Positions 28,419 through 45,880 of a DNA stretch of 64,000 nucleotides are shown here, piece after piece. A model generated the notes under the pieces. That model saw nothing but the letters and a program-made list of their open reading frames with translations. It did no database searches and was not told the origin of the DNA. Within the stretch, counting starts at the first letter, position 1. Each line of letters opens with the position of its first letter. The DNA lies in the NCBI GenBank assembly GCA_035289605.1, contig DATDWR010000014.1, positions 13,798-77,797 on the forward strand, read 5' to 3'. The DNA comes from Candidatus Nanoarchaeia archaeon (GTDB taxonomy: Archaea > Nanobdellota > Nanobdellia > SCGC-AAA011-G17 > GW2011-AR18). The position numbers and the translations under genes were made by a program.

Positions 28419-29929
28419 TTAAATTTTTTTAGAGCATTGTTCTCTCTGTTTTGTATTAAGAAAACATTTTCTGAAGCAGTATTCTTTTTTGTACCATTTA
28501 ACTACTGTTGAAATACTCTTCTTTTTGTTTTCATATTTTACGCTTGCTAATACGCAGTTTATTTCATTGTAAGTTATAGATTCATCTTTTATTCTTTCTT
28601 TTATATCTTTCAACTTTTCATTTTCATCTTTGATATTATTTAGAATTGTTATTATTTTATTTTTAGGGATTATTCTCCATATGCTTATCTGATTGTATTC
28701 TATTAAATTAGCAAGATGACTCCATACTGTTGATTCTTTAATGCCTCTTTGTTGCGCTATCTGTTTTATGCTTAATCCCTTCTTTAGCATTTGTAGTGTT
28801 TTTTGTGTTGTAAACTTGTAGTCTGCTGCTTCTATTTTCTTTAGGAAATTGTCATGTTTTTTAGGGTTTTTTATTTCAGTATTTGGTTCTACTGGGAAGT
28901 CTTTATTGAATTTCCTTGTTATTTGCCTTCTATATTTGTATGTGTCTGCATTAGAAACATATGCAGTCCATCCTTCAAATATTTCTATGACTTTTTCTCT
29001 TTCAACTGCGCCTTTTTCATATAATCCTTTTAACATTAAAAAATTTCTTTCAAACTTTTGCAGATTCTTTTTTCTTATTAGCTTGAATTCTGGAAATATT
29101 CTAAATCCTAAGAAATTTGTCCCGTTGCTTGACTGTATTATTTTAGATTTGTCTGGGTGTAATTCTAAGGCTAATTTTGTTTTTAAGAATTCGTCTATTT
29201 TATTTTTGTAATAATCTAACAATGTTTTATGCTTATGTAAGATTACGAAGTCATCCACATATCTTACGTAGTATTTTACTTTTAATTGCTCTTTTACATA
29301 GTGATCAAGTTCGTTAAGGTAGACATTTGCAAAGAATTGTGAAGTTAAGTTCCCTAAAGGCATCCCAATTTTTGCCGTCGCCCCCCCCCGCTGTGGTTTG
29401 CCAAGATTGTTTTTATTAACCAGATTAATCTTGAGTCATTTACTTTTTTCTTAATTAACGTGATTAATATTTCATGATTAACTGTTTCGAAATAGTGTTT
29501 AATATCTGCTTTCAAGACATAACAGTCTCTTGTGTAATTTTTTGAAACTTTTCTTTTGAAAAAGTCAAATCTCTGAACTGCTTTAAATGCTCCTTTTCTT
29601 GCTCTGTTAGCATAATTATCAAAAATGAAACTATTGTCAAAAATAGGTTCTATTATATTACATATCGCATGATGTATTACTCTATCTCTGAAGTCTGACT
29701 TGCTTATCTTTCTTGTTTTTGGATCTCTAAGGATGAAAGTTTGTAAGGGTCTTGGCTTGTAAGTGTGAAATATTATTTCAGATTGCAAATCTAAAAGATT
29801 TTGTTTTAAATCTTTTTCAAAGTCTATAACATATTGCTTCAATGTTTTTCTTTTTCTTGCTTTTTCATAAGCTAAGTAAAGATTATCGTAAGAAATAATT
29901 TGACTAAAAATATCAATTTCGTTATCCAT
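28419..29929 (-). CDS. DGR-type reverse transcriptase with C-terminal HTH extension, interrupted by a frameshift in a G9 tract
   Basis: Track ORFs 29354..29929 and 28419..29363 are the two halves. Motifs present: FRDRVIHHAI, ADIKHYFETVNH, LGNLTSQFFANVYLNELDHYV ([I/L]GxxxSQ, the DGR hallmark), YVRYVDDFVIL, LHPDKSKI and NFLGFRI. Adding one G at 29381-29389 gives ...HSGGGATAKIGMPLGNLTSQ... Confidence 0.85.
29381..29389 (-). other. G9 (plus strand C9) homopolymer at the RT frameshift site
   Basis: cgCCCCCCCCCgc in a strongly AT-rich genome. The frames of the two RT halves differ by +1 exactly here. Confidence 0.9.
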
Positions 29930-29949: not shown

Positions 29950-30230
29950 AGTCCCAGCTTTTGTTGTCTTTGCTATTCCAACCACACGGCCGTAGAAGTT
30001 GTCTAGATTGTAGTTGCCATTCAAACCGTTGTTGTAGTAGCCAACAAACAGCACACGGCCAGCAGAGTAGCCCTTTCACTTTTTACTATTCACTGCCGCT
30101 TCACCATTTTTGGCGTTGCGACTGTATTTTATAGCAATAATATTGCCTTAGTGAAAAGGCGTGTAGCCCAAGCCACTCCAAAATTTAACTTACTACACCG
30201 ACGCATAGTAAATTAATAAGTGCTGGGACT
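29950..30230 (-). ncRNA. putative TR-containing DGR RNA bounded by a perfect 9-bp inverted repeat
   Basis: agtcccagc (29950-29958) and gctgggact (30222-30230) are exact reverse complements bracketing the TR plus spacer. Internal hairpins lie at 30190-30211 and 30134-30146, and 30070-30079 pairs with 30151-30160 (9 of 10). A TATA-like ttttatac element lies ~26 nt upstream. Confidence 0.45.
29971..30060 (-). repeat. DGR template repeat (TR)
   Basis: Non-coding copy of the VR. On the minus strand it reads ggccgtgtgctgtttgttggctactacaacaacggtttgaatggcaactacaatctagacaacttctacggccgtgtggttggaatagca, rich in AAY and TAC codons. Confidence 0.85.
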
Positions 30231-30262: not shown

Positions 30263-31084
30263 TTATTCAACTACTTTTACTCTGGAATCTCTAACAGGAA
30301 CATATAAAGTTCCATTATGTTCAAATGCTCTTTTCTCACTTAAAGCACCAGCTACTCTTGCTTCTAATTTAGGATCCAAATTTTTTGCGACACTATGCGC
30401 CTCTGGCGCAACCCCAACCACACGGCCGCAGAAGAAGTCTAGATAGAAGCCAATCAAACCGTCTTTGCAGCAGCCAACAAACAGCACACGGCCTCTGGCT
30501 TCGTCACCTAAATCATCTCTATGCCATACGCCGATTCTGTTGCCGTAAGCTTTCTTGTGAGCTGCTAGATATCTTTCTGCGTTTTCTTGTCCGCCTAAAA
30601 ATGGGACAGTTTGAGGATGTGCTAAAGCTTCGTCAACTTTTATAACACCGCTAGTTGATTTTCTTAAAGTGTCATGATCAACAACGAAAACTCTTCCGTT
30701 GCCTTCTTGGTCTAGTAAACTATAAAATTCATCTTGAGGCATTATTCCAGCACCATTAACTAATTTACCATCATCTATAGCTTTTGCTACATTTGCTGGA
30801 TTGCTGAAGTAATTGGGAACGTGACCATAAACAACTACTGGTTTTCCGTGTCTTGTCTTTCCTGTTGCTCTAATGCTTGGAGTTCCAAACCATACTTCCC
30901 ATAATCTGGATTCTTTATCAGCGTCTGTTCTTGCTTGTGCTAGTTCTGGCATGAATAAAGGATTGTAACCTGCATCTGCACAATCTTTAAAGGATCTGTC
31001 AACACTGTGGCTTCCTTCTGCATAAAATTCTCTAGCTTGAGAAACAACTTTTCTTACAATATCGATCACATTATTATATGCCAT
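30263..31084 (-). CDS. DGR variable (target) protein, cytoplasmic, unknown N-terminal domain
   Basis: 273 aa with no signal peptide or TM. The VR encodes GRVLFVGCCKDGLIGFYLDFFCGRVVGVA about 45 aa from the C-terminus. It is visibly more GC-rich than its surroundings. Confidence 0.85.
   Translation of the reverse strand: MAYNNVIDIVRKVVSQAREFYAEGSHSVDRSFKDCADAGYNPLFMPELAQARTDADKESRLWEVWFGTPSIRATGKTRHGKPVVVYGHVPNYFSNPANVAKAIDDGKLVNGAGIMPQDEFYSLLDQEGNGRVFVVDHDTLRKSTSGVIKVDEALAHPQTVPFLGGQENAERYLAAHKKAYGNRIGVWHRDDLGDEARGRVLFVGCCKDGLIGFYLDFFCGRVVGVAPEAHSVAKNLDPKLEARVAGALSEKRAFEHNGTLYVPVRDSRVKVVE
30397..30409 (-). other. GC hairpin at the 3' edge of VR1 (gcgcc-aga-ggcgc on the coding strand)
   Basis: 5-bp GC stem with a 3-nt loop. 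It is absent at the equivalent TR position. This is analogous to the target-recognition hairpins described downstream of VRs in other DGRs. Confidence 0.55.
30407..30493 (-). repeat. DGR variable repeat (VR1)
   Basis: An 87-nt match to the TR. Differences: 13 substitutions at TR adenines, 1 at a TR cytosine, and one 3-nt gap (hand alignment). Confidence 0.85.
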
Positions 31085-42119: not shown

Positions 42120-42926
42120 TTATGCTGTTTTGCCTTGAAGTAAATCTTCTAAACTGACTCCAATTTTTTTCGCGACTGACTGTGGCCCTGCCACTTCCCC
42201 GACAAAACGACCGAAGTTGTCAAGATCGATGTAGCCGTCCAAACCGTAGCCGTAGCCGCTGCTAACGGACACCAAACTGCCTCTATCAGCTTGACCTTCT
42301 TGAACACTTAAACTAATGTAAGGTTTCTCTACTCCTTTCTTGATTAACATTTCAGCATAAGCTTCTGCTCTTCTTTTTCCGCCTGAAAGCATTATTGCTC
42401 TCGGATCTTTAACCCATTTAGCTAATTTCATGTAATCATTAGGTAAACTTTTGAATAAACTAACATCTGCTACTACTCCGAATTGTTCTTCTAAGTCTTG
42501 GTCTTGGGTTTCTCTTAAGAAAGTTTTATAATCTCTTAATCCTTCTACTTTTCTTTTTTTGAAAGCTTGAACTTCTTGTTCTGTTAGTTTTGCTCCATAG
42601 TTTACAAGTCCTTTTTCAATAGCGCTTTTTAATCTTTGATGATCTGGTAAAGGGTGATTTAAACCGTGAACTACAATAACTTTATTTCCGACATTGTAAA
42701 CTCCTGAAGCTGTAGTGTACCAGTCAGTCCAGATATAATCATTAAAATCTGGACAGTCATTTCTTAAATCCAAAACTCTGGGAGAAGTTACTGGCTTCAA
42801 ACCTCTAGCTACAGTATCTCTTAAAGCATTAGCAACACCGTACTTGCTGTCTTTTAAGTCTTCAACAATTTCTCCAAAAGGTACTGGAGATGTTCTGTTT
42901 ATTTTACCATCAATTGTGATTATCAT
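42120..42926 (-). CDS. paralog of the DGR target protein (VR-like C-terminal segment)
   Basis: 268 aa. It is collinear with 30263..31084: VVVYGH/VIVVHG, KAIDDGKLVNGAG/SAIEKGLVNYGAK, FLGGQENAERYL/MLSGGKRRAEAY, and RGRVLFVG...GRVVGVAPEAHSVAKN versus RGSLVSVS...GRFVGEVAGPQSVAKK. Confidence 0.75.
   Translation of the reverse strand: MIITIDGKINRTSPVPFGEIVEDLKDSKYGVANALRDTVARGLKPVTSPRVLDLRNDCPDFNDYIWTDWYTTASGVYNVGNKVIVVHGLNHPLPDHQRLKSAIEKGLVNYGAKLTEQEVQAFKKRKVEGLRDYKTFLRETQDQDLEEQFGVVADVSLFKSLPNDYMKLAKWVKDPRAIMLSGGKRRAEAYAEMLIKKGVEKPYISLSVQEGQADRGSLVSVSSGYGYGLDGYIDLDNFGRFVGEVAGPQSVAKKIGVSLEDLLQGKTA
42182..42194 (-). other. GC hairpin after the VR-like segment (gtggc-agg-gccac on the coding strand)
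   Basis: 5-bp stem with a 3-nt loop, starting at the same codon offset after GRxVGx as the VR1 hairpin but with a different stem sequence. Confidence 0.5.
42197..42283 (-). repeat. VR-like segment of the paralog (diverged from the local TR)
   Basis: Encodes SLVSVSSGYGYGLDGYIDLDNFGRFVG. It aligns to the TR, but many differences are at non-adenine positions. Confidence 0.5.
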
Positions 42927-42957: not shown

Positions 42958-42994
42958 TTTATAAGCTTTTCTATTGTTATTACTTAGAAGTAAC
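42958..42994 (-). promoter_or_regulatory. promoter block of the paralog: BRE/TATA plus ATTACTT-N2-AAGTAA palindrome
   Basis: tttataagcttttctattgttattacttagaagtaac versus 31114-31151 shows about 34 of 38 identical positions by eye. Confidence 0.5.
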
Positions 42995-43722: not shown

Positions 43723-43959
43723 ATGTATATGGTAAAATTAATTAGTCTGTCAGAAGAGGCATATAAAGTGTTGAAGCAACTAAAAAAAGATAGCATGAGC
43801 TTTAGTGATACAATTTTAAAACATTTAAACCATGAAAGGAAAAATAAAACTGAAGACCTGGAAGGTTTGATAAAGTGGATTAAAAGTATAAAAAGTGTAA
43901 GTAAAAAAGAAAAGATATCAAAAAATGTTGACGAAATAGTGTATGGTATAAAAAGATGA
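43723..43959 (+). CDS. vapB: VapB-type antitoxin (archaeal DUF217-like)
   Basis: KLISLSEEAYKVLKQLKKDSMSFSDTILKHL. Overlaps the vapC start by 4 nt. The start may be at 43729. Confidence 0.65.
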   Translation: MYMVKLISLSEEAYKVLKQLKKDSMSFSDTILKHLNHERKNKTEDLEGLIKWIKSIKSVSKKEKISKNVDEIVYGIKR

Positions 43960-44348
43960 TAGCTGATACATCATTTCTTGTTGCATTGTTTATAGAAGAA
44001 GATGAGCTTCATGAGAAATCAATAAATGAACTAGAAAAGAATAAAAAAGAAATATTAATTACTGATAGAATTCTTGAAGAAACATTTACAGTTATTTGTT
44101 ATAAAAAAGGAGTAGATTATGCTTTAATGATTTTTGAGAAACTAAAAAATAATAAGGACATAATTTTTTATCAGTTAAGTGAAGAAGAAATTAAAAAAAT
44201 ATATGAAATAATAAAGAAATTCAGAAAAAAATTAAGTTTTGCAGACTACACTGTAATTTACTTGGCATTAAAGGACAATGAAAAAATACTATGCTTTGAT
44301 GAAGAACTAAATAAGACAATTAATTATAGAAGAAGAATACAAGATTAA
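43956..44348 (+). CDS. vapC: PIN-domain toxin VapC
   Basis: MIADTSFLVALF... with an acidic PIN residue pattern, coupled to the upstream antitoxin. Confidence 0.75.
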   Translation: MIADTSFLVALFIEEDELHEKSINELEKNKKEILITDRILEETFTVICYKKGVDYALMIFEKLKNNKDIIFYQLSEEEIKKIYEIIKKFRKKLSFADYTVIYLALKDNEKILCFDEELNKTINYRRRIQD

Positions 44349-44710: not shown

Positions 44711-45880
44711 ATGGCTAATATACTAAAGAATAGGCATAAATATTTTGTTTCAATAGAAGATTTGAATCCGTATAGATTTTTTATTAAATTGGATGATTCT
44801 TTTAATGAATTGATGTTTAGTAAATTAGTTTCCAAGTATCCATCAATGAAGGAAATTTCAAAACAGTTAGATGTTTCTTTGAGTTCTATTTATTCTTGGA
44901 AAAAATCAAGACAATATCCATTATACATAATTTTACATATTTTAAAGGAAACGAAAATAGAAATAAAAAAATTAGAACATACTATTATTAGTATAAAGTC
45001 TGGATTTAAAACTAAAAACGGCGGTGGGGGTGTTAGTCAGGCCATATTTCCGGTGTTTCCGATAAATTTTTCCAAAGAATTATTTAGAATAATCGCACAT
45101 ACTTTTGGTGACGGTTGTTTAAGTATAGCCCAAAATGGAAATATAACTCATGCATACTATAATCAAGAAAAATTGTTAAGAGATAACATTAAACAGGATA
45201 TAAGAGTTGTTTTTGGGAATATAAATCTTAATGAGGGTATAAATAAGACTACACCCTTCGTTAGTATACCTGTTCCTATTTCACTTATTTTATTATCAAA
45301 GATAAAAGTATTTAATGGTACTAGATGCATTATTCCTGACTTTATCTTAAACTCAAAAGATAATGCTTTTAAAATAGAATTTATTAAATCAATTTTTGAT
45401 GATGAAGCCCATGTAAGATACGATCCACCACACAGAAGAGTAGAACTTGCTTTATCTAATGAACTATTTTTAAAACAAATTAGAAATATCTTATTAGAAT
45501 TTAATATAGGAACTACTAATATCTATTATTATTTAAACCGTGATGGATATCATAAATATTATTTTTATATAAGAAATTTTCATAATATAAAATTATTTTA
45601 TGACAAAATTGGATTTAATCATCCTAAAAAGTTGAGAGACTTAAAAATGATAATTTCAAATCCCGGTAGAAAGCATTATGCCACTGGAGAAACTGAATCT
45701 TTAATAATCTCCAATTTGGCTAAAAAACCTGGCTTATCTAAGGATCTTTCCAGAATTTTATTTAGGAATAAATCAACAATTAATTATTGGTTATATAAAT
45801 TAGAAAATAAAGGAAAAGTTAAAAGAAATGGGTTTAGAAAGCTTAAAAAGCGTTCTGAAATTATCTGGGGTTTGAAATGA
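44711..45880 (+). CDS. free-standing double-motif LAGLIDADG-family protein flanked by HTH/wHTH domains
   Basis: Motifs IIAHTFGDGCL and FIKSIFDDEAHV. N-terminal HTH (MKEISKQLDVSLSSIYSWKK) and C-terminal wHTH (NKSTINYWLYKLENKGKV). Its stop overlaps the topA ATG (ATGA). Confidence 0.65.
   Translation: MANILKNRHKYFVSIEDLNPYRFFIKLDDSFNELMFSKLVSKYPSMKEISKQLDVSLSSIYSWKKSRQYPLYIILHILKETKIEIKKLEHTIISIKSGFKTKNGGGGVSQAIFPVFPINFSKELFRIIAHTFGDGCLSIAQNGNITHAYYNQEKLLRDNIKQDIRVVFGNINLNEGINKTTPFVSIPVPISLILLSKIKVFNGTRCIIPDFILNSKDNAFKIEFIKSIFDDEAHVRYDPPHRRVELALSNELFLKQIRNILLEFNIGTTNIYYYLNRDGYHKYYFYIRNFHNIKLFYDKIGFNHPKKLRDLKMIISNPGRKHYATGETESLIISNLAKKPGLSKDLSRILFRNKSTINYWLYKLENKGKVKRNGFRKLKKRSEIIWGLK

Follow-up and report, generated by a model that had tools for sequence, protein, structure and literature searches.

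The solo AvpA-family gene described here, which we call T2w, raises two questions: which template wrote the variable region-like segment (VR) near its 3' end, and is that segment still being rewritten? The gene lies in a 64-kb window (the whole stretch of DNA that was analysed, 64,000 nucleotides, contig C14:13798-77797) of a DPANN archaeon whose genome assembly comprises 839 kb in 22 contigs, with 33% GC and 86% completeness.

42120-42926, minus strand: T2w, a solo AvpA-family ORF of 268 aa

An earlier note on this DNA had described T2w as a remote paralog of the target of the nearby DGR (DGR1), carrying a VR that was not a product of the local TR. It had left three possibilities standing, namely an older, drifted target, a target of a TR elsewhere in the genome, or a fixed paralog.

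The relationship to the local target was readily confirmed. By BLASTP, T2w aligns collinearly with the DGR1 target T1 (30263-31084) at 24% identity over 251 aa (E 2e-8), and the two proteins belong to one family profile that matches AvpA. No Pfam family matched the protein of either gene. The VR-like end, the hairpin and the shared promoter that had been ascribed to T2w are all present. In a crude test, no TM segment was seen (the maximum 19-residue Kyte-Doolittle score was 0.65) and no signal-like N-terminus was evident, in agreement with the first reading of the sequence. Close homologues number just 10 among 5.8 billion clustered proteins, and a profile search with the T2w family yielded 401 representatives at 50% identity.

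A 9-sequence alignment gave a pLDDT of 43 for T2w, and 89 sequences were needed to obtain a good AlphaFold model (pLDDT 92.7, pTM 0.88). When this model was compared to the PDB with Foldseek, the sole significant match was AvpA (5IOO_A; E 3e-13, target-normalised TM 0.80), which is 19% identical to T2w in the structural alignment, and the 89-member profile that includes T2w covers 5IOO_A over its full length (E 4e-108). The C-type-lectin fold that the earlier note had put forward for the C-terminus was obtained, and the entire protein is predicted to be a single AvpA-type C-type-lectin fold with inserts. AvpA itself consists of one CLec-fold domain that carries inserts and a short VR, with a flexible extension after the VR, and the DNA of that extension holds a hairpin (PMC5006420). 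Since AvpA is one such domain, the "unrecognised N-terminal domain" proposed earlier for T2w would be part of that same fold, a placement to which the model, the 5IOO match and the profile all point, and that proposal has to be dropped. Handa et al. (2016; PMC5006420) had already noted three AvpA homologues outside DGRs, and a role in symbiont-host interaction has been proposed for the family in the literature.

The genome encodes exactly three DGR RT genes, three RT-16 RNAs (Rfam RF03019) and three TRs. Each RT-16 RNA is found directly 5' of a TR, and each TR has its own adjacent target. The elements that matter for T2w are the following.

29978-30060, minus strand: TR1 of DGR1, not the template of the T2w VR
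30414-30493: VR1 of the DGR1 target, with the hairpin after VR1 at 30397-30409
28419-29929, minus strand: DGR1 reverse transcriptase, interrupted at a G9 run (29381-29389) and a second time close to the C-terminus
30062-30227 (minus strand) in the window, C9:689-828 and C3:38674-38846: RT-16 RNAs (RF03019; 81, 73 and 91 bits, respectively)
C9:897-1760: T9, the target of DGR2
29381-29389 in the window, C9:4-14 and C3:38147-38154: G/C runs within the RT genes

Contig C9 holds DGR2 in the complete order target, RT-16 RNA, TR and RT, with the RT cut by the contig end within a poly-G run and its remainder at the end of contig C22. The third cassette, at the end of contig C3, is more distant. The second frameshift of the DGR1 RT lies at 28419-28430, downstream to about 28230, and the last ∼65 aa of this RT, homologous to the tail of the DGR2 RT, run on in another frame. 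No Avd gene is present, and the DGR RT bears a C-terminal HTH_40 domain. RT-16 and TR are bracketed together by AGTCCCAGC...GCTGGGACT, an arrangement that suggests one structured DGR RNA.

G/C runs of at least 8 nt occur only three times in the 839-kb genome, each inside a DGR RT gene. The tract in the DGR2 RT is G9, G10, G11 or G14 depending on the assembly, and an intact RT of 565 aa is obtained only with G10. Of six assemblies, one has this RT in frame; the tract puts it out of frame in the others (G9, G11). Within the closest RT clade, tract lengths of 9, 9, 10, 11, 11 and 12 were found between genomes (loci L002, L019, L020, L021 and L055-L061). The tract looks like a slipped-strand on/off switch, or a site of transcriptional slippage, that would control hypermutation; a homopolymer assembly error may also account for its varying length.

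T2w has its own promoter, with two recognisable elements.

42980-42993, minus strand: candidate palindromic operator, TTACTTctAAGTAA
42958-42971, minus strand: BRE/TATA, GAAAAGCTTATAAA
31137-31150: the T1 copy of the palindrome

The combination of TTACTTctAAGTAA and GAAAAGCTTATAAA is found in the 839-kb genome only upstream of T1, T2w and T9, plus one weak chance match. In relatives a similar palindrome lies 5' of AvpA-like genes (L002, L003, L007, L014 and L017); its general form, (T/C)TACTT-N2-3-A(A/G)T(A/G)(A/G)T, stands 5-10 nt upstream of BRE/TATA in both cis and solo genes and across genera. The palindrome is likely an operator for a common regulator, and to name the HTH domain of the RT as that regulator is guesswork.

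The 3' end of T2w is where the template question is decided.

42199-42281, minus strand: VR-like region, 83 nt, GC-rich in a 33% GC genome
42199-42212, minus strand: 3' end of the VR, GGTCGTTTTGTCGG, 14 nt, GC-rich, identical in TR2 and in the C9 VR
42182-42194, minus strand: post-VR hairpin GTGGC-AGG-GCCAC, a 5-bp stem with a 3-nt loop (DNA fold)
42120-42198, minus strand: 3' tail segment, 79 nt, with the hairpin, a GTCGCGAAAAAAA motif and the short tail KIGVSLEDLLQGKTA

The earlier note had proposed a search of the genome for a second TR. An adenine-tolerant sliding scan of the whole assembly (86% of the genome) returned only one good match to the T2w VR, namely TR2, the TR of DGR2 near the start of contig C9. 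The two differ at 12 of 22 A sites and at 6 of 61 non-A sites (Fisher p=5e-5). In the T2w VR, AAC codons have become AGC, GGC, TAC, GAC and ATC with the third-position C retained, and the third-position base is kept in 10 of the 11 recoded AAY codons. This pattern in the T2w VR is the hallmark of adenine mutagenesis templated by a repeat of the TR2 type. The suggestion of a TR elsewhere in the genome was a sound one: TR2 is the right template lineage, given the adenine bias and the identical 14-nt 3' end. TR3, on contig C3, was also considered as a template and is unrelated in sequence.

At the 3' boundary, T2w reads GTCGG/GGAA and TR2 reads GTCGG/AATA, so that the GGAA after the T2w VR makes a GGGG-type IMH where the TR has GGAA; motifs of this type (TGGGGT versus TGGAAT) have been described for nanoarchaeal DGRs (PMC4372165).

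The T2w VR is one AAC codon (3 nt) shorter than TR2 and has the same length as the VR of the C9 target. The latter is also one AAC codon shorter than TR2, from which it differs at 14 of 22 A sites and at none of 61 non-A sites. DGR1 behaves similarly, with 9 of 16 A-site and 1 of 64 non-A mismatches between TR1 and its own VR1, which is one codon shorter. Seven independent assemblies have the same TR2, extra codon included, and the length difference is therefore not an assembly error. Five versions of the G002-type target (P0005 and P0015-P0018), identical outside the VR, range from 287 to 295 aa, and their VRs differ in sequence as well as in length. This DGR clade appears to make in-frame deletions besides substitutions, probably by slippage on AAC repeats. 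Indels opposite AAC, as well as non-A substitutions, are documented in accepted DGRs (Wu et al., PMC5758913).

The hairpin of T2w lies at the same offset from the VR as the hairpin after VR1 and is followed by a 20-codon tail. Over the 15 family members compared, pairing in the stem reaches 96% and includes two compensatory pairs, a degree of covariation reached by none of 500 shuffles. The loop is GGA in 12 of the 15 genes, GAA in one, AGA in T1, the target of the dead DGR1, and AGG only in T2w; GRA loops are described as highly constrained (Paul et al. 2015, PMC4372165). We discarded the kept hairpin as a sign of activity, given that a solo gene of the related genome G001, with no RT and with 12 non-A mismatches in its VR, still has a perfect stem and a GGA loop.

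Outside the VR, T2w is a close relative of the DGR2 target. T2w and T9 share 81% aa identity and ∼90% nt identity, the latter from a point ∼70 nt before the ATG and on across the VR. This homology ends at the 3' edge of the VR, which marks the recombination junction. Beyond it, the last 79 nt of T2w are 58% identical to T9, effectively unaligned, versus 87% identity to gene L007 of G001 and 85% to gene L014 of G002, both members of a "B-type" solo AvpA subfamily. A long tail of ∼40 aa is present in all other members of the T9 clade, in T1 and in AvpA itself. The match of the tail to B-type genes, together with the stop in homology to T9, indicates that T2w is a recombinant whose tail comes from a different AvpA subfamily. 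This chimeric 3' tail had escaped the first reading of the sequence.

T2w sits between a Zn-ribbon gene and a metallophosphoesterase gene. These two genes are adjacent, with the site empty, in three related genomes (G003, G006 and G016), and the same site holds other inserted genes in G001 and G024. From this distribution T2w is best described as a lineage-specific insertion at a variable site. Compared with the empty site in G003, neither a target-site duplication nor clear boundaries were seen at the T2w insertion. A VapB/PIN (VapC) toxin-antitoxin pair lies just past the flanking phosphoesterase gene (listed with the next ORF as 43723-44348 and 44711-45880 of the window), and a free-standing ORF of the LAGLIDADG type has a 4-nt overlap with the start of the gene for topoisomerase I. 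At the site of L007 (GT2 glycosyltransferase/radical-SAM gene), the present genome (G000) carries the whole DGR2 cassette and G001, which has no DGR RT whatever, carries the solo B-type AvpA gene. At this one locus, DGR cassettes and solo targets appear to stand in for one another.

With TR2 as the template lineage, the remaining question is whether T2w is still a target. Genuine TR/VR pairs of this clade show non-A mismatches at 0 of 61, 1 of 64, 0 of 64 (the G002 cis pair) and 1 of 61 sites (the G006 solo gene), or 2 of 250 when pooled; the 6 of 61 in T2w differ from this at p=9e-4. Outside the VR, 10.3% of coding sites differ between T2w and T9 (dS 0.30, dN 0.069, dN/dS 0.23). The 9.8% non-A divergence between the T2w VR and TR2 is close to this figure, and thus no more than the background that separates the two paralogs.

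We polarised the non-A differences with the G002 cassette as an outgroup. Changes derived in the T2w lineage make up 5.5% of non-VR sites, from which ∼3.3 derived changes are expected in the 61 VR sites. Of the six differences, four are derived in T2w and a fifth in TR2, and the last is ambiguous. The change derived in TR2 has been copied into the cis VR on C9 and is absent from the T2w VR. Homing would have reset such non-A changes. The 3' 51 nt of the VR hold 2 non-A mismatches against 3.6 expected (p=0.30), and a partial rewrite may be compatible with these small counts. Of the possibilities first listed for T2w, the older, drifted target and the fixed paralog describe its present state best, with non-A mismatches at the paralog background and four of them derived in T2w.

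Contigs that encode the exact T2w protein number 19 and come from several metagenome samples (7 places among those listed). Its 90% cluster has two members, the other one differing at three residues outside the VR and carrying an identical VR. No VR variants of T2w were seen in the 19 contigs, which does not discriminate between a frozen and a live VR as the two cis targets, T1 and T9, vary just as little in this population; the invariance of T1 and T9 fits RTs that are out of frame in most assemblies. Published yardsticks differ. Paul et al. (2015, PMC4372165) described differences almost only at TR adenines, e.g., at most 2 non-A differences per 100 bp, and the T2w VR lies beyond this with 6 in 83 nt and a 3-nt gap. 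Targets with up to 11 non-A differences and AAC-opposed indels were accepted by Wu et al. (2018, PMC5758913), a range that places the T2w pattern within annotated DGR targets.

We consider the T2w VR to be probably frozen and favour this state over occasional rewriting, which we regard as distinctly less likely. The alternative would make T2w a live, rarely used trans target of DGR2, onto which the TR2 cDNA homes when the poly-G switch frames the RT, with the non-A mismatches arising from infrequent or 3'-limited conversion or from sloppy RT fidelity. The adenine bias speaks for it, as does the intact set of 3' elements, namely the 14-nt match, the GGGG-type IMH and the covarying stem, and the DGR2 RT is intact in one of the six assemblies (565 aa, G10). 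Four of the six non-A mismatches fall in the 5'-most 21 nt of the VR, where homology-driven 5' resolution could spare old sequence, and the literature accepts such targets (PMC5758913).

Trans targeting also has a parallel in a relative. In G006, the solo gene L013 on contig C19, which has the same tail type as T2w, shows 15 A-site mismatches and 1 non-A mismatch to the TR of L020 on contig C47. One G006 TR matches both its adjacent target and this solo gene of the other subfamily on another contig, and thus would serve a cis target and a remote B-tail gene alike; we take G006 as a clean case of multi-scaffold trans targeting. A second G006 solo gene, L005, has a TR2-type VR with no matching TR in G006. 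Remote DGR targets have been surveyed in Treponema denticola, Legionella and cyanobacteria (Wu et al. 2018, PMC5758913).

Against a live T2w stand its non-A divergence, which equals the paralog background and is mostly derived in T2w, the two non-A mismatches in the 3' part of the VR, the fidelity of the clade RT at non-A sites (2 of 250), the departure of the AGG loop from the constrained GRA, and the fact that a variant of the T2w VR was seen in no assembly. Taken together, these points make a live target the less likely reading.

A fourth TR is considerably less probable. Such a TR would have to sit in the ∼14% of the genome that the assembly lacks, or else on an extrachromosomal element, and would match all non-adenine positions of the T2w VR, reading GGCAGTTTGGTGTCCGTTAGC... 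with A at the variable sites. The 86% completeness of the genome leaves room for it, and DGR cassettes sit at contig ends and break assemblies. Strict A-rule IUPAC scans of metagenome and genome contigs returned 0 better TRs, and since the positive control, a C9 VR pattern that is bound to match TR2, also returned 0, these collection-wide scans are uninformative. The assembly counts exactly three each of RTs, RT-16 RNAs and TRs, every TR with an adjacent target, T2w is a 90%-identical duplicate of the DGR2 target, and its non-A differences look like clock-like drift from TR2 rather than the imprint of another template.

A present-day link of T2w to TR1 of DGR1, only 12 kb away, can be dismissed, whether as its product or as its target. 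The two loci are close, share their promoter and hairpin architecture and have TR-encoded motifs that resemble each other (YGL.G...LDNF). Even the best alignment, however, requires two codon gaps and many non-A mismatches, which refutes such a link; the 3' ends differ (GGCCGTGTGGTTGG versus GGTCGTTTTGTCGG), and the DGR1 RT has two frameshifts. The misfit with TR1 upholds the earlier exclusion of the local TR; the codon indels that had been cited in its support do not exclude a TR, as both cis VRs are one codon shorter than their own.

Our preferred explanation is that T2w is a duplicated and recombined copy of the DGR2 target, with a VR that was once written by the DGR and has not been rewritten since, and that it encodes a fixed-specificity protein. 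We give this explanation as a whole a probability of about 0.62. The DGR2 target gene (C9 and C22) would have been duplicated together with its promoter, and the copy would have exchanged its 3' end with that of a solo AvpA gene from the other subfamily, the crossover falling at the conserved 3' edge of the VR. The product would then have been inserted between the Zn-ribbon and metallophosphoesterase genes, at the site that is empty in sister genomes. Since the paralogs split, the VR would not have been rewritten, accumulating non-A substitutions at the rate of the rest of the gene, and the loop of the homing hairpin would have drifted. T2w would meanwhile have been under purifying selection as a whole gene and kept its dedicated promoter. 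The protein is most likely a ligand-binding protein of fixed specificity, with a surface that was once shaped by the DGR and is not currently diversifying.

These observations bear on how minimal, probably symbiotic cells build their repertoires of binding proteins. The VR that had seemed unexplained can be assigned to the second DGR within this small genome, and the locus is thus not a new kind of variable protein. On this evidence, the targets of DPANN DGRs can undergo duplication and recombination at the VR boundary and then persist as fixed paralogs. T2w also provides a worked example of how a live remote target can be told from a frozen one without reads, by setting non-adenine divergence against a paralog clock and polarising it with an outgroup TR. 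Rather speculatively, AvpA genes could be exchangeable cassettes bounded by the operator/promoter on one side and by the VR 3' edge with its hairpin on the other, with T2w as an "archived" DGR-matured specificity. Recombination at these modules would bring scaffolds within the reach of a DGR or remove them from it, and T2w would have been duplicated, uncoupled by the tail swap, the loop drift and the lack of an adjacent TR, and then maintained under purifying selection as a fixed receptor of a germline-like kind. Were this general, specificities that DGRs selected in the past would be preserved in DPANN genomes as a fossil record.

Among known systems, the cis targets of DGR2-type cassettes are the closest to T2w. 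T9 shares with it the promoter/operator, the frame and length of the VR and 81% aa identity, and the G002 orthologue of T9 (MEK6948383-type proteins) is 66% identical to T2w. The cis copies on C9 and in G002 match their own TRs with 0 non-A mismatches, unlike T2w, and in the G002 orthologue the differences between samples are confined to the VR, length included, a variation that T2w does not show. T2w also differs from the cis targets in lacking an adjacent RT-16, TR and RT and in its tail.

The remote DGR targets of other organisms resemble T2w in being target-type genes away from an RT/TR cassette, with a TR-homologous VR and 3' recognition elements, and non-A substitutions and AAC-opposed 3-nt indels are documented among them. 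Active remote targets normally show (almost) only A-to-N differences, whereas T2w has the non-A divergence of neutral paralog drift and no sign of ongoing variation.

AvpA and the AvpA-like proteins of Nanoarchaeota and groundwater DPANN (PMC4372165, PMC5006420, 5IOO) have the single-domain CLec fold with inserts in common with T2w, along with a short VR close to the C-terminus yet not at it, a post-VR extension whose DNA bears a hairpin with a trinucleotide loop, a GGGG/GGAA pair of IMH and IMH*, and no evident signal peptide. T2w departs from them in its identity to AvpA itself, at only 19%, in the short 15-aa tail from another subfamily that replaces the ∼45-aa extension, in the AGG loop instead of GRA, and in the six non-adenine differences between its VR and the best TR. 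Both the AvpA family and this kind of DGR target are already known, and what T2w adds is an orphaned, recombinant paralog derived from DGR2.
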